Part shown: one piece after another, positions 3,541 to 50,670 of the stretch | Layout: each line of letters begins with the position of its first letter | How positions within the stretch are numbered: position 1 is the stretch's first letter | DNA from: Candidatus Paceibacter sp. | GTDB taxonomy: Bacteria; Patescibacteriota; Patescibacteriia; Magasanikbacterales; UBA922 | NCBI GenBank assembly: GCA_020725175.1 | Contig: DYFM01000006.1 | Location: 2,190-66,189 of the forward strand | Direction: 5' to 3' | DNA length: 64,000 bases | Notes under the pieces: model-generated | Seen by the model: the letters and a program-made list of their open reading frames with translations, nothing else | What the model was told of the DNA's origin: nothing | Databases searched by the model: none | Translations under genes and position numbers: made by a program

Positions 3541-3684
3541 AACAGCGAAATGACGAAATAAAGAAATAAGGTAATAGTTATGAAAGTACAATTACTAGAA
3601 CATACAATGAACATTTAATCTGTTTCGTTATTTCGTTATTTCGTTATTTCGTTATTTCGTTATTTCGTTGTTTCTTTATTTCGA
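3541..3684. repeat. Inverted pair of octamer arrays: GAAATAA-type units (3541-3570) versus a (C)GTTATTTC x6 tandem array (3621-3684)
   Basis: Direct 8-nt tandem repeats readable in the sequence; the same architecture recurs at 5501-5660, 18340-18420, 24028-24065 and 39641-39735. Confidence 0.6.
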
Positions 3685-4359
3685 TACAACAACCGCATAC
3701 CATGTATAAAATCCATATACTCCTCCCCCACTCCAAAAATCCAACAGTTCTTCTTCAGAAAGCGTCCGATTTCCCGGTAGCACCCCATTATCATCCACAG
3801 TTAACCCACTCTCTCCCGCATCATGCCACGAATCATATACATAAAATTCCTTATCTTCAAAATGAAAACCAACCAAAGTAAGATAATGTTGTACGCCTTT
3901 TTTCTCTCCCAGCAGAATAATCGGTTGTCCAGCAGATAAATTTGAGCGTAAAAACGCAATTCGTTCACTATCGGTAATAGATGCATCATGAAGTCGGAAA
4001 GATTCTGGAATAAAATCCATTTCTCTCAGCGCCTGTTCGATTCCCAGTGGATGAGTACCGTAGCGGGGAATTTGGTACGAAATTGTAGCGGCAACTTTTT
4101 CAGAGGAAATATCATTCTTTCCCAAAACTCTTGCAACCGCCGCCACACTATAGGGTCCACAGGTCGTACCGGTTTGAAGATAGTTAAACGCTGAAGGATA
4201 ATTCAACGCGACCACATCTCGCGATTCAGTAAACACCGGAGGGATCTCCCGTGTACCAGAAAAAAGTCCACTATAATAAAAAACAAACCAAGCGAAAAAG
4301 AAAAGGAGAGGGATGGAAATTGATTGTAGAATAAAAACAATATTGACCGGTGAACGCAT
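3676..4359 (-). CDS. Membrane-anchored C39-like (papain-fold) cysteine peptidase domain protein
   Basis: TTCGPYSVAAVARVLG (Cys) ... QHYLTLVGFH ... VYDSWHD (His) pattern of Peptidase_C39_2; N-terminal TM segment. Start moved to the internal Met (MRSPV) to avoid overlap with the upstream gene. Confidence 0.55.
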   Translation of the reverse strand: MRSPVNIVFILQSISIPLLFFFAWFVFYYSGLFSGTREIPPVFTESRDVVALNYPSAFNYLQTGTTCGPYSVAAVARVLGKNDISSEKVAATISYQIPRYGTHPLGIEQALREMDFIPESFRLHDASITDSERIAFLRSNLSAGQPIILLGEKKGVQHYLTLVGFHFEDKEFYVYDSWHDAGESGLTVDDNGVLPGNRTLSEEELLDFWSGGGVYGFYTWYAVVVSK

Positions 4360-5564: not shown

Positions 5565-5627
5565 TCCCCGACCCAGACAGGTCCGCCTTGCCTGTCCGCC
5601 TAGGGTGGGGACGGAGTTACTTCTTTA
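5565..5627. repeat. GC-rich dispersed repeat, partial copy C, flanked by octamer arrays
   Basis: CCCCGACCCAGACAGGTCCGCCTTGCCTGTCCGCCTAGGGTGGGGACGGAG shares the GTCCGCC-TNGGGTGGGG core with copies A and B. Confidence 0.5.
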
Positions 5628-7161: not shown

Positions 7162-7163
7162 AT

Positions 7164-7559
7164 AGACAATTGAGAATAAGCCGAATTTTGTATCCCAAAA
7201 TAATTGGGAGGTAATCATTTCTCTTGCTCTACCATTACTGATAGAGTCATAAACGAGCCAACTTTCCATCCCGACAAGTCGGGACGCTGCTCTTTCTCCA
7301 GGTAGGGTTTACCATCCCGACTGAGTCGGGAAGCATTGTCGCCTTTTATCTAGAACAAAAGACATCAATGCACTTTTCACCTTTCTCCCGACAATGTCGG
7401 GATAGTATTGTCTCTGTGGCACTGTCCCGTTCTATACCTTACGGTATAGAAGGTGGGTGTTACCCACTACCCTTTTCCTCAGTGTTAAACACCAAGAGGA
7501 GTTCGGACTTTCCTCACCACCCCTCGAAAGAGGTGGAGCGATTACCATGTCAATTGTCT
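7164..7559 (-). ncRNA. rnpB: RNase P RNA (bacterial type), about 396 nt
   Basis: On the minus strand: GAGGAAAGUCCGAACUCC (CR-I) and AAUUCGGCUUAUUC (CR-V). The P4 strands AG(U)CCGAA / UUCGGCU pair with covariation relative to E. coli GG/CC. P1 is formed by AGACAAUUG (5') and CAAUUGUCU (3'); a P3 hairpin CCACCUCUUUCGAGGGGUGG is present. Confidence 0.75.
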
Positions 7560-7571
7560 TGTGCTCAGGAG

Positions 7572-7654
7572 AGGATTTGAACCTCCACAGGGCGAACCCC
7601 GCTACCACCTCAAGGTAGTGCGTCTACCATTCCGCCACCTGAGCATATAATCAC
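7572..7654 (-). tRNA. tRNA-Leu (anticodon GAG), long variable arm
   Basis: Cloverleaf: acceptor GCUCAGG/CCUGAGC, D-arm GCGGAAUGGUAGACGC, anticodon loop UUGAGGU, variable hairpin CGGGGUUCGCCCUG, T-loop UUCAAAU; CCA not encoded. Confidence 0.85.
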
Positions 7655-23722: not shown

Positions 23723-23829
23723 AGTACAAATACTATAGCGTAAAATGGGAGATAAATCAACCATAAAAAAGTGCTGTACAACACTTTTTATATTCAGAAA
23801 CACAGATAATCCCTCTCGATTCAATGAAT

Positions 23830-23985
23830 GTCCCCGCAGCACGTGTCCGCCTGGGGTGGAAGCTGACGGGGTATCGCTATAGGTAGTTTTTCCCGATCAA
23901 ATCGGGAGAGAATAAAACCCTCGTCCGCCTTGCTTTGCACGCCTTGCTTGTCCGCCTTGGGTGGGGGCTGTGGGCGGATTAAACA
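23830..23985. repeat. GC-rich dispersed repeat, copy B (full length)
   Basis: Aligns with copy A over about 150 nt; the internal hairpin is changed with compensation (CCCGATcaaATCGGG versus CCGTAGCaaGCTACGG); terminal GGCGGATTAAAC. Confidence 0.6.
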
Positions 23986-24027
23986 AACACTTACACGCAC
24001 AACCTCTTCTTTCTTCATTTGGTTATT

Positions 24028-25321
<1,294 letters not shown>

Positions 25322-39510: not shown

Positions 39511-39640
39511 TGGGCACTACAATACGGGATCACAGGAACACTACAGCACTACATGACTGCGGTACTAGTAAACGAGATGGTTGAGGGAGGGAATCTATCG
39601 AAATACTGTACAACTATTTAGAATATGCAACCAATTTCGA

Positions 39641-39735
39641 TATTTCCCTATTTCGTTGTTTCTTAGTTTCTTTATTTCCCTATTTCTTTATTTCCTTATT
39701 TCGATATTTCTCTATTTCGATATTTCGTTGTCTCT
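39641..39735. repeat. Octamer array (CTATTTCG / TTATTTCC units, about 11 copies)
   Basis: Direct tandem 8-mers; translating it causes a spurious N-terminal extension of the downstream ORF. Confidence 0.5.
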
Positions 39736-39745
39736 TTCACCACCT

Positions 39746-41170
39746 ATGAAAAAACGCATTCTCTTCCTATTAATCATCATTCTCATAGGAAACATTTTCC
39801 TCACCTCAAATGTTCATGCCCAGCTCGATCAACGCTGTTGGACAAAACAAGAATGTATTGACGCTCGAAAAGAAAGTGCCAAGCCCTTTGAAATGACTGA
39901 AGCTGAAGCTGCAGATGGGTTTTACAACGAGCCGGACGCAGTGGCGATATGCGGTGAAAAGAGTGCTGCCGGTGAAGAAATGGGATTTTGTCTACCTTCT
40001 TACAAAACAAAGACCCAAATCAAGTTTGGCGGTAATGATACGTTTCTCCACATGGGAGAATTCATTCAATTTATGTACCGCTATGGTATTTGGATTGTCG
40101 GACTAGCAGCGGTATTTATGATTATTGTCGCCGGCTTCCAACGATTGACATCGGGTGGAAATCCTGATAGCATTCAATCTTCGAACAAAAAAATTACCGG
40201 GTCAATTATAGGGGTCACGCTCGCGGTTACCTCGTATCTTATTTTGAATACCATCAATCCAGCTCTCGTAAATTTACGCCTCCCGCAGATCTGGATGGTG
40301 AATCCGCAGGCTCTAACGCCATCATTTTGTTCTGAACTTGATGATACTCAACTGGTAGCTCCACTTGGCCCTTCCGGACAACAGTACAGCAATGAACAGA
40401 AGGAGACAGCTTACAAAAGCAGTATTGCTTCCAGCGCATTCCAACCGATTTCCCAAGCAAAACCAAAATGCGGAACAGATTTTCTCGTTGACGGTGCCGG
40501 CAGCGCCACCTGTTCCGGAACATTTTGTAAAGAAGGTGGTGGACAGGTGTGTTTTCAAGGTGTGAATAATAATGATAAAGTACCAACCTGTAAAAAAGGA
40601 AATATTGCCGGGCTTGTTTACAATTCAAACATTTTTGCCGATACGTTTATTGGAGCATTAAATGAAGACTTTGAATGGCCATGGGTAACTGATCCAATTA
40701 CACCTGGTCAAGATGCTTTAGACTTAGAAGCAACCTGCATGGATGGCACACTGATTGAAAACATTGTTTCACTAGAGGACCTCTCTACTTACGATGACAT
40801 TAAGAAAATACAATTCTATTCTTTATCCATAAGTGAGAATGAAATATCTGAAACAATAGATACATGCTCATCGCACGGCGGATTAAAAGGATTTATGCTT
40901 GACATGTCATTCAATGAAGATTTTGCACTTGACAGTGAGGACCATTATATAGTTAATAATTCTTCACGAGTAGGAATTGACTTAGGAGATTTAGCCGCAT
41001 TTAAAAAAACTAGACTTACCACACCAAAAGAAATGTTCATTTCTCCTGATGATTTAAGACAAGGAATACAGTTGGATATTAATGCAGGAAAAGTTTGTGA
41101 CATTGATAACGCTTTCGAAGATGGACACCCAAGAAGAAAACAATGTTATGGAAAATATGGTTATGAATAA
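39746..41170 (+). CDS. Secreted Cys-rich hypothetical protein with a central two-helix membrane hairpin (TrbC/VirB2-pilin-like topology)
   Basis: Signal peptide MKKRILFLLIIILIGNIFLTSNVHA; TM1 YGIWIVGLAAVFMIIVAGF, short loop, TM2 IIGVTLAVTSYLILNTI; about 290-aa C-terminal domain with many Cys; 12 nt upstream of uvrA. Confidence 0.5.
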   Translation: MKKRILFLLIIILIGNIFLTSNVHAQLDQRCWTKQECIDARKESAKPFEMTEAEAADGFYNEPDAVAICGEKSAAGEEMGFCLPSYKTKTQIKFGGNDTFLHMGEFIQFMYRYGIWIVGLAAVFMIIVAGFQRLTSGGNPDSIQSSNKKITGSIIGVTLAVTSYLILNTINPALVNLRLPQIWMVNPQALTPSFCSELDDTQLVAPLGPSGQQYSNEQKETAYKSSIASSAFQPISQAKPKCGTDFLVDGAGSATCSGTFCKEGGGQVCFQGVNNNDKVPTCKKGNIAGLVYNSNIFADTFIGALNEDFEWPWVTDPITPGQDALDLEATCMDGTLIENIVSLEDLSTYDDIKKIQFYSLSISENEISETIDTCSSHGGLKGFMLDMSFNEDFALDSEDHYIVNNSSRVGIDLGDLAAFKKTRLTTPKEMFISPDDLRQGIQLDINAGKVCDIDNAFEDGHPRRKQCYGKYGYE

Positions 41171-46421: not shown

Positions 46422-46494
46422 GGGCCTGTAGCTCAGGGGTTAGAGCACAACGCTTATAACGTTGGGGTCGGTGGTTCAAAACCACCCAGGCCCA
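46422..46494 (+). tRNA. tRNA-Ile with anticodon UAU (Ile-type body, reads AUA)
   Basis: GGGCCUGUAGCUCAGG...GGUGGUUCAAAACCACCCAGGCCCA closely resembles the bacterial tRNA-Ile(GAU) body; anticodon loop CUUAUAA; extended -10 (TGCTATACT) upstream. Confidence 0.75.
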
Positions 46495-46497
46495 CAT

Positions 46498-46791
46498 ATG
46501 CATTATGTGTACTTTCTTTGGAGTGAAAAACTGCAAAAAATATACATCGGAGAAAGTGCGGATATTATCGCAAGATTACAGTATCATAATTCCGGCAGAC
46601 AAAGATTTACCTCACGCGGCATTCCTTGGAAACCAATTGCTTGTATACCATTTGCGAGTAGAGCAGAAGCACTAAAAGAAGAAAAACGTTTAAAAAAGTT
46701 ACGTAGTAGGCCGTATCTTAAACAATATCTCCTAACTCAGGGGAGAAAGTTTCCTTTCTCAGGGGTTAGTCCCGATCACATCGGGATATAA
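46498..46791 (+). CDS. Small stand-alone GIY-YIG nuclease-domain protein (about 97 aa), filling the gap between the tRNA-Ile and its duplicated 3' half
   Basis: GIY-YIG motifs YVYFLWS..KIYIGESADIIARLQYHNSG; the ORF starts 4 nt after the tRNA and its stop codon overlaps the start of the duplicated tRNA segment. Confidence 0.7.
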   Translation: MHYVYFLWSEKLQKIYIGESADIIARLQYHNSGRQRFTSRGIPWKPIACIPFASRAEALKEEKRLKKLRSRPYLKQYLLTQGRKFPFSGVSPDHIGI

Positions 46792-46828
46792 CGTTGGGGT
46801 CGGTGGTTCAAAACCACCCAGGCCCACA
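46787..46828 (+). repeat. 42-nt direct duplicate of the tRNA-Ile 3' half (TATAACGTTGGGGTCGGTGGTTCAAAACCACCCAGGCCCACA), followed by the presumed original tRNA terminator
   Basis: Exact 42/42 match to 46455-46496; followed by the hairpin AAATAGCCAAATTTGGCTATTTTTTG. Confidence 0.85.
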
Positions 46829-48442: not shown

Positions 48443-48471
48443 ACATAAGGAAGAAAACAAAAAAAACATGA

Positions 48472-48556
48472 AAACAATAAAGCAATAAAGCAATATAACA
48501 ATTTAGCAATATAACAATTTAGCAATATAACAATTTAGCAATATAACAATGTAACC
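48472..48556. repeat. Tandem repeat, 16-nt unit CAATATAACAATTTAG x about 4, preceded by AAAGCAATA units
   Basis: Direct tandem repeat readable in the sequence. Confidence 0.7.
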
Positions 48557-48879
48557 ATTTAACACATAACACGATAATTAAAAAATATCACACTACATCC
48601 GTAGTGTTTTTTTAAACAACAAACATACAAACAAAAAAGTTATTCACAGTTTTACTTGCAACACTATTTCAAAAAAACAAAAAACATTTTATACTATATG
48701 TGAAAGGTCGAAGAAAAAATTTTTGTAAAAAAATTTTTTCGAATAGTTTTTACATCAATGCTTGTCATGTAAAAACGGCGACGTATTTGTAGGATCATTT
48801 GGTGTGTACCATGGTCATGTCAAATATGATTGCAAATACAATCTTCATCCTTCATTAGAAGGAATTACTTCAATATATT

Positions 48880-49002
48880 ATGCCAGCAAAGAAACGTCCA
48901 GCAGCTAAGAAGGCTGCAAAGCGACCAGCTAAGAAAGCTGCAAAGAAGCCAGCTCGAAAAGCTGCAAAGCGACCAGCTAAGAAGGCTGCAAAGAAGAAAT
49001 AA
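48880..49002 (+). CDS. 40-aa lysine/alanine-rich basic protein (histone H1-like / AKKA-repeat)
   Basis: ORF MPAKKRPAAKKAAKRPAKKAAKKPARKAAKRPAKKAAKKK with a GAAGGA RBS 8 nt upstream and a perfect intrinsic terminator 10 nt downstream; absent from the ORF track because it is under 60 aa. Confidence 0.55.
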   Translation: MPAKKRPAAKKAAKRPAKKAAKKPARKAAKRPAKKAAKKK

Positions 49003-49052: not shown

Positions 49053-49270
49053 TTCTAATGTCTAATTCCTAAAGAAGTATACAGCGGATTCAAAATTTTA
49101 ATTAATGTCCCCGTAGCAAGCTCCGGGAAATAAAACCCTATGCACGCCTGGAGCTGTGGGCGGATTTACATTTTAGCTTTTCTTTAATGAGGTGGTAGGT
49201 GTAATGCAGACTTATTCTAGGTTTTACATTAGGCTTTGTATTAGAAATTAAACATTAGACATTAGAAATT
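49053..49270. mobile_element. TIR-bounded MITE-like element carrying a partial GC-rich repeat (copy D, 49108-49168)
   Basis: TIRs TTCTAATGTCTAATTCCTAA / TTAGAAATTAAACATTAGACATTAGAAATT resemble those at 44033-44190; the core CCCCGTAGCAAGCTCCGGG..CACGCCTGGAGCTGTGGGCGGATTTACA matches the 3' half of copy A. Confidence 0.45.
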
Positions 49271-49288: not shown

Positions 49289-50557
49289 CTATTCAAGTAG
49301 CCCTCGCAATTCTTCATCTGTAAAAATCTTCACGACCCCAAACACCCCATCGTATCCCGGATGTATGTCAATGTCTCCTTGCCGCATTTTTTCAATAGCT
49401 CGAGCGAGTACCGTTGAGCTTACGTTCTCCACATCTTCCAATGGTGCTTCGAGTACTACATAAAACTCATTTCCTAATTTCCTCAACAATTCTCGATACG
49501 CCGTCTGAACTTTTTTGGAACCTACTCCCACCTGAAACACATCCGCAATTATTTCCGGAAGCGGAACAATACTTTTGAATCGTGAAACATACTGCTTCGC
49601 TTCTTCATTTGTCCTGTCTCCAAGTTGAACCACCCGATTCAAAACACCGATGACGAGCGGTTTCTTGCACACCGGACAAATACCATGATACTTGGTAGTG
49701 TCTTCGGGAGAAAGTACTACGCTACAGGCGGCATGCCCATCGAGATGATACTTTCCTTCCTCTGGATAAAATTCAATTGTATAATCTATAGCTGAGGTTT
49801 TCTTGTTCAATCCACTCATGATCGTAGCATACGTAATGGATTCCTCAGAAGTAAATGTCATGACATTGGCTTCACGACCCAATTTTGCCGGACTATGTGC
49901 GTCAGAATTTGAAATCAAAGTTACTGAATCCAAAAATGAGCATCGTGCATTCATAAGCGGATCACTTGAGAGTCCTGTTTCAATTGCTGGAATGCATGGT
50001 GTAAGTTCATCAAACGCTTCCTCGAGACAATCATATCCACCTTTTGAACCAAGTATTCCAAACCACGGCGTCCACACATGAGCCGGCACCATGACCATTC
50101 GGTCATCAACTTCCAACATCACCTGCAGTAATTCTTTTGGAGTAAGCCCAATGATCGGTCGCCCATCAGAACGCAAATTAAACCCATCCACTTCAAGCCG
50201 TCGATTAAACTTTTCTACCACTTCAATATTAGGCGCAAACACCAACACATGCACCCGCCGCGTCTTCCCTTTATGTTTTTTGATACATGCAATTTCTGTC
50301 CCAAGAATGAAGCGTGTCTTACTCCCTCCCCTACCAGGGGAGGGCTGGAGAGGGGTCAACGTATACACCCCCTCTCTCACTTCCACCAAATTCTCCCGAA
50401 TATACTCAAACCACTTCGGATGCGTAAAATCCCCCGTCACCACAATATCAATTCCCCGCTGTTCACATGCCTCAGCAATTTTCGGCAAATCCAAATCCTT
50501 GGAGCAAGCGCGCGAGTATTTGGAGTGAATATGAAGGTCCAGGATTTTTTGGAGCAT
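49289..50557 (-). CDS. PHP-domain (polymerase/histidinol-phosphatase-like) metallophosphoesterase family protein
   Basis: N-terminal LDLHIHSKYSRACS PHP motif and further His/Asp metal ligands; 422 aa. Confidence 0.75.
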   Translation of the reverse strand: MLQKILDLHIHSKYSRACSKDLDLPKIAEACEQRGIDIVVTGDFTHPKWFEYIRENLVEVREGVYTLTPLQPSPGRGGSKTRFILGTEIACIKKHKGKTRRVHVLVFAPNIEVVEKFNRRLEVDGFNLRSDGRPIIGLTPKELLQVMLEVDDRMVMVPAHVWTPWFGILGSKGGYDCLEEAFDELTPCIPAIETGLSSDPLMNARCSFLDSVTLISNSDAHSPAKLGREANVMTFTSEESITYATIMSGLNKKTSAIDYTIEFYPEEGKYHLDGHAACSVVLSPEDTTKYHGICPVCKKPLVIGVLNRVVQLGDRTNEEAKQYVSRFKSIVPLPEIIADVFQVGVGSKKVQTAYRELLRKLGNEFYVVLEAPLEDVENVSSTVLARAIEKMRQGDIDIHPGYDGVFGVVKIFTDEELRGLLE

Positions 50558-50564
50558 AAATAGG

Positions 50565-50670
50565 TAATTTCCAAATAAAAAATTCCAATTTCCAATCTGC
50601 GTGATTTGATACTACCACATAATGATCGCTTTGGAAATTGGAAATTGAAATTTGGAATTTATTTACCAGC
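50565..50670. repeat. Intergenic inverted repeat AAATTCCAATTTCCAA ... TTGGAAATTGGAAATT
   Basis: 16-bp inverted repeats about 35 nt apart, made of GGAAAT / ATTTCC direct sub-repeats. Confidence 0.4.

Follow-up and report, generated by a model that had tools for sequence, protein, structure and literature searches.

The DNA analysed here is a 64-kb stretch of contig DYFM01000006.1 (hereafter the window), with a mean GC content of about 41%, and this text concerns a short GC-rich palindromic segment that lies in frame within one of its genes. Names of homologues and loci placed the organism in Candidatus Magasanikbacteria of the Patescibacteria. The host gene is an intact minus-strand open reading frame (ORF) encoding 422 residues. 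A Pfam search with this protein returned no match, and its identity was obtained from NCBIfam, the PDB and a fold search. The protein aligned with the endonuclease Q (EndoQ) of Pyrococcus furiosus, PfuEndoQ (structure 5zb8), over residues 7-415 with E = 4e-49, and the entries 5zb8 and 7k30 were both detected at E about 1e-49. The NCBIfam profile TIGR00375 matched with E = 1.4e-50 over 372 of its 374 positions, and its score of 172.8 bits was below the curated equivalog cut-off of 326.6. An AlphaFold (AF2) model built with 30 homologues reached a mean predicted local distance difference test score (pLDDT) of 88 and a predicted TM-score (pTM) of 0.88. Foldseek aligned this model with 5zb8_A at a query TM-score (TMq) of 0.81 (E = 1.6e-35) and with the DNA complex 7k30 at TMq 0.80. 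EndoQ is known to be a lesion-specific DNA-repair nuclease with a three-domain fold consisting of PHP, Zn-binding and helical domains (PMC5961232). In the alignment columns, the family-invariant His/Asp/Glu and Cys residues were conserved in the window protein. The homologues also carry the name 'endonuclease Q family protein', and the relatives share a gene order of a citrate-synthase-like gene, two small genes and then EndoQ. The original prediction had spoken of a PHP-domain gene; the PHP domain is indeed present, but 5zb8, TIGR00375 and the TM-score of 0.81 make the assignment more specific, and the gene is predicted from sequence and model to encode the lesion-specific DNA-repair nuclease EndoQ rather than a generic PHP protein.

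The segment is translated in frame as ..EGVYTLTPLQPSPGRGGSKTRF.. and contains a unit of 36 nt, whose parts are located in the table. As had been predicted, the quoted GC-rich sequence was found at this place with its perfect 9-bp stem, and the ORF is unbroken. Hairpin 1, the core of the unit, is the only GC-rich perfect hairpin in the window: the other hairpins of at least 8 bp have at most 56% stem GC, and many of them consist of A-runs and T-runs with a terminator-like appearance. A first-order Markov model gave an expectation of 0.02 stems of this kind (perfect 9-bp stem, at least 75% GC, loop of 3-8 nt) per 64 kb, and one was observed. When an 81-nt segment was folded, both stems were obtained, with -18 kcal/mol as DNA (z = -3.7, 0 of 200 shuffles as good) and -36 kcal/mol as RNA (z = -2.6). 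An intrinsic terminator was ruled out, as no T-run (U-tract) follows the hairpin on either strand. The Rfam scan of the window at gathering thresholds detected only RNase P RNA and two tRNAs, with no family at the hairpin.

Two adjacent hairpins had been proposed. Both perfect stems are present, but hairpin 2 is not part of the insert, as it is made of host codons (R61-E62-G63) and the C-box. An equivalent of hairpin 2 arose in 22 of 5000 shuffles (0.4%) of the neighbouring 60 nt. The E-G of the 'E-GVY' motif, encoded by the distal arm, is conserved in homologues with and without inserts, and no pairing of the hairpin 2 type was found in the orthologues L081, L082, L083 and L204-L206 (L-numbers denote the DNA loci read, from relatives and metagenome contigs, and P-numbers homologue proteins). 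Hairpin 2 was thus ruled out as a general feature or a targeting signal, because the E-G codons are unconserved at the nucleotide level and no orthologue has an equivalent. Judged from these alignments, it is the C-box of the element pairing with pre-existing host codons, not the second half of an inserted element.

Table. Location of the hairpin unit, its host gene and other features. Positions are those of the window unless preceded by a locus label.
Feature	Position	Strand	Description
Inserted mini-element	50321..50356	-	36 nt, ACCCCTCTC-CAG-CCCTCCCCT-GGT-AGGGGAGGG-AGT on coding strand; codons T68-S79 (TPLQPSPGRGGS)
Hairpin 1	50324..50344	.	Arms 50324-50332 / 50336-50344 (CCCTCCCCT / AGGGGAGGG), 9 bp, 100% complementary, 3-nt loop; element core
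Hairpin 2	50348-50355 / 50369-50376	-	GAGAGGGG / CCCCTCTC, 8 bp, 100% complementary, 13-nt loop
C-box	50348..50356	-	Coding strand ACCCCTCTC; asymmetric 5' motif, 3 nt upstream of hairpin 1; proximal arm of hairpin 2
Hairpin 2 distal arm	50369..50376	-	Coding strand GAGAGGGG, codons R61-E62-G63; host sequence, outside insert
EndoQ host gene	49289..50557	-	PHP domain, Zn-binding domain and C-terminal helical domain (predicted); family-invariant residues all kept
In-frame metagenome copies	L156:1792, L090:612, L152:638, L176:2706		NadA, CobQ, LipB and CarB-like ORF, respectively; other organisms
Inverted repeat upstream of EndoQ start codon	50565-50595 / 50631-50661		31 nt, AT-rich, imperfect, 84% complementary
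GC-rich intergenic repeat family	1623-1797, 5565-5617, 23820-23979, 49105-49183		Core GTCCGCCTTGCCTGTCCGCCTGGGGTGG and second module CTGTGCACGCCTGGGGCTGTGGACGGAT; no Rfam match
Intergenic 8-nt tandem arrays	3593-3698, 23996-24083, 39613-39750, 48444-48563		TATTTCGT-like; AATAAAGC/AATATAAC
12-nt-period repeat	48902-48996		CAGCTAAGAAGGCTGCAAAGCGAC...
tRNA-Ile(tat) gene	46422-46495		42 nt of 3' part (46455-46496) exactly duplicated
Duplicate of tRNA-Ile 3' part	46787-46828		332 nt downstream
RNase P RNA, bacterial class A	7162-7644	-	162 bits; directly adjoins tRNA-Leu(gag)

The place of the unit in the protein was compared with that of orthologues. In the alignment with PfuEndoQ, an 11-residue gap exactly faces PLQPSPGRGGS. 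The loop between GVYKLK and TRFI(L)GTE was hypervariable in the 120 top-ranking homologues, which are 59-66% identical to the query. By a rough motif-based sorting, 55 of them have a short K-D/N-x-S-S-K loop (KD(G/N)SSKTRF), 17 have Pro/Ser...Gly (GC-type) inserts such as TPPQSSPDRGGS, TSPQPSPYKGEG and TPPVPPLKGEE, about 26 have Lys/Gln/Asn-rich (AT-type) inserts, and the remaining homologues have other inserts. Four AT-type inserts were read as DNA and proved to be non-hairpin short-period tandem repeats, with three units of the heptamer CAGAACT in L002 and tandems of 8 nt in L207, L208 and L051. These resemble the repeats that fill intergenic regions of the same genomes. The 12-residue segment was accordingly found to be a lineage-specific insertion, as had been anticipated; the peptide is missing from orthologues that have no repeat, and an ancestral origin, which had been named as the alternative, did not agree with the alignment. 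In the AF2 model, residues 68-81 form a coil between strands 64-67 and 82-95, with pLDDT below 50 at residues 71-77. The expected surface position was thus borne out by the model, in which the insert is predicted to be the disordered tip of a beta-hairpin. It lies at the N-terminal end of the strand bearing the invariant Glu88, nine residues upstream of this residue, which we take to be a metal ligand.

Two further observations concern this loop and its surroundings. In EndoQ of Desulfobacterota, Nitrospirota and other phyla, the same loop (about codons 65-90) is longer and contains a conserved Cys...Cys pair, for example IAKICDKEVPxSCRGKVRF, as seen in the non-Patescibacteria loci L012, L014, L028, L031, L039, L041 and others. 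Its sequence suggests a small metal- or disulfide-stabilised module without counterpart in Patescibacteria and Pyrococcus. Just upstream of the EndoQ start codon of the window, the imperfect inverted repeat listed in the table is built of units with a period of 7-8 nt (AATTTCCAA / TTGGAAATT), and AT-rich short-period repeats of similar style occur in frame in the EndoQ loops of L207, L208 and L051.

The family of the unit was defined by two features: a perfect stem of 8-10 bp with a 5' arm entirely of C/T, a 3' arm entirely of G/A and a loop of 3-7 nt, and an asymmetric CCCC[ACT]CC box that precedes the C-rich arm by 2-4 nt, with AG following the 3' arm. The window unit has such a stem, CCCTCCCCT-GGT-AGGGGAGGG, and such a box and tail, ACCCCTCTC-CAG-...-AGT. 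A covariance model of the family was given up, since MAFFT misplaced the variable loops and put the 3' arms out of register; hairpin scans and an ungapped alignment centred on the loop took its place. All GC-type inserts read as DNA proved to have a common construction. In the EndoQ loop of L081 the unit reads ACCCCACCTC-AA-TCCTCCCCT-GAT-AGGGGAGGA-AGC (the box with its spacer is also written ACCCCACCTCAA), and in that of L204 it reads ACCTCACCCC-AA-CCCTCTCCTT-ATA-AAGGAGAGGG-AGT. L205 and L206 have the same stem as L204 with the loops TGA and GTA, giving the pattern ACCTCACCCC-NN-CCCTCTCCTT-NNN-AAGGAGAGGG. Variants occupy the EndoQ loops of L004, L007 and L027, some with a second hairpin nested or added. 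As regards nesting, L083:10220-10270 holds a 24-nt insertion inside a decayed hairpin, and at L004:10150-10230 and L207:16270-16310 an unrelated GC hairpin (GCTGGGAC..GTCCCAGTC; GCCTGGCACTGGCGGGCAGGC) lies between the C-box and the main hairpin.

Copies were also present outside EndoQ. In L004, two units in opposite orientation jointly form a 28-residue lineage-specific insert in an ATP-grasp/citrate-lyase-like gene, and the one at L004:6054-6087, aACCCCTCCCaaCCTCCCCTaatAGGGGAGGagt, matches the window unit; the orthologues of this gene in L081, L082 and the window are without units. In L207, one unit lies in frame within the gene for a TRAM methyltransferase (ETSPLTPLLQGEGK), and two more form an inverted doublet in intergenic DNA, where pairing is possible between the G-box of the first and the C-box of the second. 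The doublets are arranged as hairpin and G-box followed by C-box and hairpin (L207 16198-16330 and L004 5994-6084). Further copies comprised four intergenic ones in L040, one outside EndoQ in L005 and one beside a tRNA in L062. A metagenome scan with the pattern CCTCCCCT-N3-7-AGGGGAGG yielded at least 120 loci with GC contents of 0.36-0.69; the family is widespread in metagenomes. Among the 133 hairpins of the metagenome matches listed, the C-box accompanies the C-rich 5' arm (or its complement the 3' arm) in 57, and the opposite, mirror arrangement was seen in only one of 133 on each side. Copies from other organisms lie in frame in the genes for quinolinate synthase (NadA), cobyric acid synthase (CobQ) and lipoyl transferase (LipB), all three confirmed by Pfam, and in an ORF resembling carbamoyl-phosphate synthase (CarB), as judged by eye. 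L172 and L182 match the window beyond the searched pattern (...CCCCAG-CCCTCCCCT...AGGGGAGGG-AGTAA; ..CCCTCCCCT..AGGGGAGGGAGTAA), and 22 nt of L081, spanning box, spacer and 5' arm, are identical in the unrelated locus L191. The unit of the window is stop-free in five of six reading frames, and 64% of the frames of the family copies are open, compared with 41% for random sequence of equal GC. Codon bias for Pro and Gly had been raised as a possible cause of the GC content. It is not the explanation, because the same architecture is seen in copies that are non-coding or lie in frame in other genes, and such bias yields no perfect palindrome.

Within the 64-kb window itself, no second copy was detected by searches for the 21-mer with up to three mismatches, for perfect hairpins of at least 8 bp and for C/T-armed hairpins with up to two mismatches; a match at 7515 was discounted, as it lies inside the RNase P RNA. 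The original prediction had suggested that the segment might be the coding-region face of the GC-rich repeats seen elsewhere in the window. This membership was rejected, since those repeats are intergenic, belong to a different sequence family and have no sequence in common with the hairpin. The EndoQ stop codon is followed by one of their copies at a distance of about 100 nt. In relatives, the number of extra copies ranged from 0 (L204-L206, loci of 12-21 kb) to 3-4 (L004, L040 and L207). A separate, larger conserved structure that includes the hairpin of the metagenome scan, AACCTCTCCGTCA-hairpin-TGCCA-CCTCCCCT..AGGGGAGG-C(T)TTGGCA, was observed on many high-GC contigs among the matches (L120, L105, L118, L123, L151, L170 and L186); it could represent either a structured RNA or the terminus of some other mobile element.

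We then considered how the unit behaves among related genes. Compared with each of the relatives read, the window EndoQ shows 59-67% identity in protein and 61-67% in DNA, and third codon positions agree at only about 40%; therefore, synonymous sites are saturated. The genes of L204, L205 and L206 have 68-70% nucleotide identity to one another (45-50% at third codon positions), and their stems are identical at 20 of 20 positions, with all three loops different. Between the stems of the window and L081, the sole difference is a compensated change from C-G to T-A. When 11 copies were aligned on the loop, six of ten stem pairs changed on both sides (C-G to T-A) and 90% of the cells paired; this level was reached in 0 of 500 shuffles, and no slid register came near it. 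Decay of the 5' arm was seen in L082 and L083, the latter with the additional 24-nt insertion. Copies decay here within 78-88% nucleotide identity (L081 against L082 and L083). L211, which is 84% identical to L083 in nucleotides and 91% in protein outside the loop, has the short canonical loop. The GC-type insert of P0008 contrasts with the AT-type or empty loops of proteins that share 84-87% identity with it, and an AT-type protein matches P0005 at 83% identity. The hairpin is thus dispensable, because arms are decayed in L082 and L083, L211 has a short loop and the neighbours of P0008 and P0005 differ from them. In a neighbour-joining (NJ) ordering without bootstrap, insert-bearing sequences were scattered among empty ones and the window protein did not stand beside the L081 group, a scatter that is suggestive only. 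Judged from these sequences, the EndoQ loop of Patescibacteria is exceptionally permissive, with a turnover much faster than that of the remaining protein.

Among described elements, intragenic repetitive extragenic palindromic (REP) sequences come closest. Di Nocera et al. 2013 described REPs as stem-loops of 20-40 bp tagged with GTAG/CGTC, mostly extragenic and some wholly inside ORFs (PMC3733652). The intragenic ones often lie in replication and repair genes (uvrA, uvrB and recB), with the recB copies of two Xanthomonas species near the same site, and RPE-4 and RPE-6 of Rickettsia have been equated with CGTC REPs (PMC3733652). Like these, the EndoQ unit falls within the 20-40 bp size (a 21-nt hairpin in a 36-nt unit), forms a stem-loop inside an ORF and has an unpaired asymmetric motif at one end, and its family forms inverted dimers in relatives. 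Unlike them, it has no terminal GTAG/CGTC tag and ends in ACCCCTCTC-CAG and AGT; its sole GTAG spans the junction of loop and stem (TGGTAGGG), and other copies, such as L081 with TGATAGGG, do not contain it. It also differs in that the asymmetric motif is a C-box resembling the 5' arm, one arm is purely pyrimidine and the other purely purine, the host belongs to the Patescibacteria, the unit is single-copy in 64 kb and no RAYT, that is, REP-associated tyrosine transposase, is known for it. The recurrent occupation of the EndoQ loop across a clade is far more extreme than the recB case.

A resemblance to Rickettsia palindromic elements (RPEs) had been predicted, and it held for the behaviour of an in-frame, translated palindrome but not for size or phylum. 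According to the summary of Ogata et al. 2000 in PMC10969869, RPEs are palindromes of about 150 bp with a conserved peptide module, confined to Rickettsia, which lie in frame in unrelated housekeeping genes, are translated and are predicted to be compatible with the protein fold. The family of the EndoQ unit is likewise in frame in unrelated ORFs (EndoQ, the ATP-grasp/citrate-lyase-like gene, TRAM methyltransferase, NadA, CobQ and LipB). The element differs in having 36 nt or 12 codons, a quarter of the length, in forming a 12-residue low-complexity loop and in residing in a different phylum, with relatives in many kinds of metagenome contigs (GC 0.36-0.69). The element therefore behaves like an RPE but is not one, being set apart by size and host phylum. 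In the REPIN/RAYT system (Bertels & Rainey 2011), the unit is also a short hairpin, and REPINs are species-specific and extragenic by definition (PMC3116915). The inverted doublets of L207 and L004, with flanking boxes able to pair, are similar to REPINs, whereas the window copy is an intragenic singlet, and no RAYT was found, although no genome-wide search for one was made. By analogy with such systems, single-strand hairpin mobilisation seems the most plausible mechanism.

Other small hairpin elements offer looser parallels. The small dispersed repeats (SDRs) of cyanobacteria, treated by Elhai and colleagues in 2008, are reportedly under 30 nt, hairpin-capable and mobile, are said to sit inside genes and repeats without destroying them, and are reportedly limited to heterocyst-forming cyanobacteria; by this description only, they are comparable as very small hairpin repeats inside a gene. 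The GC clusters and byp elements of yeast mitochondria, together with other mitochondrial hairpin elements, are GC-rich palindromes of small size that have entered the coding regions of AT-rich genomes. All of them are organellar, and the byp elements are skipped by the ribosome; unlike in that case, the EndoQ ORF stays open, and nothing points to bypass. A miniature inverted-repeat transposable element (MITE) was rejected, as terminal inverted repeats with a target duplication are absent and no direct repeat flanks the unit. In an incomplete body of papers, we found no description of such elements in Patescibacteria or the Candidate Phyla Radiation (CPR).

Summarizing the above results, we consider that the segment is probably one copy of a tolerated, translated and dispersed REP-like mini-element and not a part of the enzyme. 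The repeat measures about 33-38 nt and comprises an unpaired C-rich box (ACCCC[A/T]CYC), a spacer of 2-4 nt and a perfect hairpin of 8-10 bp, usually followed by AG. The window copy sits in the DNA for the tip of a beta-hairpin in the EndoQ PHP domain. Because its length is a multiple of three and its orientation and frame contain no stop codon, the element is simply translated, giving a disordered Pro/Gly/Ser loop that the enzyme would tolerate, with a neutral or nearly neutral effect on the protein. The same loop would have been repeatedly filled with the hairpin family or with AT-rich short-period tandem repeats, or left short. Spread may occur via a single-strand-hairpin route, either by a RAYT/IS200-like HUH transposase or by template switching during replication. 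The perfect stems might then result from recent insertion and/or arm-to-arm templated correction rather than from a role of the hairpin in EndoQ, and a C-box co-adapted with host codons in hairpin 2 would fit such arm templating.

Several observations weigh against this model. Neutrality for the enzyme is an assumption. Neither a transposase nor a donor copy was found; Y1_Tnp is absent from the Pfam lists of the fetched loci, in a comparison that did not include a scan of the window ORFs. In the closest pair of filled and empty loops, L081-L083 against L211, the element replaces 9 nt (GATCATTCC) instead of adding to them, and neither a target-site duplication nor a clean junction was found in this comparison. 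All EndoQ copies have the same orientation and a near-identical 5' junction between AAR and ACC, which a single old insertion with many losses would give as well. Stem conservation is above the neutral expectation and would also fit selection for the hairpin. No extra family copies were detected in the 12-21 kb loci around EndoQ of L204-L206, and in these genomes and that of the window the family does not look like an actively proliferating repeat. Finally, in the unselected loci L001-L011 and L027, about four hairpins were counted in 2.9 kb of loop region versus three in roughly 200 kb elsewhere; this density in the EndoQ loop, roughly 100 times that elsewhere, would fit selection.

As the main rival of the mini-element model, selection may have kept the hairpin as a structure acting in cis within the EndoQ gene or its mRNA, whether to pause translation, to aid folding, as a site for RNase or regulation, or as a regulatory DNA hairpin or G-rich structure; we regard this as quite unlikely. 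It is kept alive by site enrichment, as many Patescibacteria lineages show the hairpin at this one loop while flanking DNA holds few or none, and by stem conservation, as perfect identical stems with compensatory pair changes are retained around varying loops in genes saturated at synonymous sites. The empty, decayed and non-hairpin states weaken it: 55 of the 120 orthologues are without an insert, the four AT-type inserts read are tandem repeats, decay has reached the 5' arm of L082 and L083, and relatives as close as 91% in protein are empty. In addition, the element occurs in unrelated genes and intergenic DNA, and it is neither an intrinsic terminator nor a match to Rfam. An unlikely alternative, to which we give slightly more weight, is one ancient insertion into EndoQ of early Patescibacteria followed by vertical inheritance, with empty orthologues as secondary deletions and the window copy as an old relic. 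The common orientation, the shared C-box frame (ACC = Thr) and the near-identical 5' junction after YxLK would agree with it, as would the fact that L081, the most distant by nucleotide identity of L081, L082, L083 and L211, is filled. However, insert-bearing proteins are scattered among empty ones in both the NJ ordering and the nearest-neighbour lists, and empty loops keep K-D/N-x-S-S-K-T-R-F, which deletions would not regenerate. Copies also decay within 78-88% nucleotide identity, yet perfect stems persist across about 40% third-position identity, and a Lys codon at the 5' junction of L081 is missing from that of the window.

The palindrome could also have been built in situ by replication slippage and intrastrand template switching in a hypervariable loop, its likeness to other copies being convergence on hairpins of C-runs and G-runs. 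The loop does gather slippage products, as in L002, L207, L208 and L051, hairpin 2 looks like templated perfecting of host codons with the C-box, and the element replaces 9 nt rather than adding. Against this, asymmetric non-palindromic features (C-box, spacer and trailing AGT) link the window copy with those in unrelated genes, in intergenic DNA and in other phyla, a gene of 41% GC would hardly give rise to a stretch of about 70% GC, and the 22 nt shared by L081 and L191 lie in unrelated loci; we therefore consider this origin very unlikely. Nothing beyond a general suspicion of perfect palindromes in metagenome assemblies speaks for an artefact of sequencing or assembly, for instance a chimeric read or a hairpin read. 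The identical 422-residue protein is present on eight contigs from different public assemblies (JGI 3300029893, NCBI GCA_020724605.1 and others), and two of these contigs were read, one agreeing with the window base for base over 4.3 kb and the other differing by a single 16-nt indel in an intergenic tandem array. Because of this agreement, an artefact is excluded for practical purposes, and diverged homologous copies in many independent genomes argue in the same direction.

Other features of the window and its relatives were also recorded. Two independent assemblies of this organism disagree by exactly two units (16 nt) in the length of the intergenic 8-nt array near 48.5 kb, which is therefore length-polymorphic. 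The 12-nt-period repeat would, in the appropriate frame, encode a Lys/Ala-rich, histone-H1-like low-complexity protein. The duplication of the 3' part of the tRNA-Ile(tat) gene has the pattern seen after integration at a tRNA gene, yet only about 290 nt lie between the two copies. In two relatives, genes for bAvd / 23S_rRNA_IVP four-helix-bundle proteins were found near EndoQ (L205:1932-2360 and L206:11365-11743). Such proteins accompany diversity-generating retroelements.

The element itself is of modest novelty, an untagged intragenic REP-like repeat, and the recurrent filling of one EndoQ loop across the phylum is the more interesting result. It is possible, though doubtful, that the unit of C-box and pyrimidine/purine hairpin represents an undescribed, untagged super-family of mobile elements of ~35 nt with a very wide host range, from Patescibacteria of 32% GC to contigs near 70% GC. 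Such a family would routinely enter genes in frame and would strongly prefer the EndoQ loop in Patescibacteria, so that this loop would be a fast-evolving recorder of the repeat activity of a genome.

If the segment is a mini-element as proposed, Pro/Gly-rich low-complexity loops such as PSPxKGEG and PSPGRGG can, for the purposes of annotation, be what a hairpin repeat in the DNA leaves in the protein. The EndoQ loop would offer a natural series of filled, decayed and empty states among close relatives, which could show how tiny elements move, a question still open even for the classical REPs. Its co-varying perfect stems and drifting loops would provide a test case for distinguishing selection on structure from arm-to-arm templated repair. 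A disordered insert of 12 residues, nine residues from the invariant Glu88 (probably a metal ligand) of a PHP nuclease, would seemingly be without cost. Small-genome symbiotic Patescibacteria would carry REP-like selfish DNA that is translated within essential-type genes, a situation so far best known from Rickettsia.

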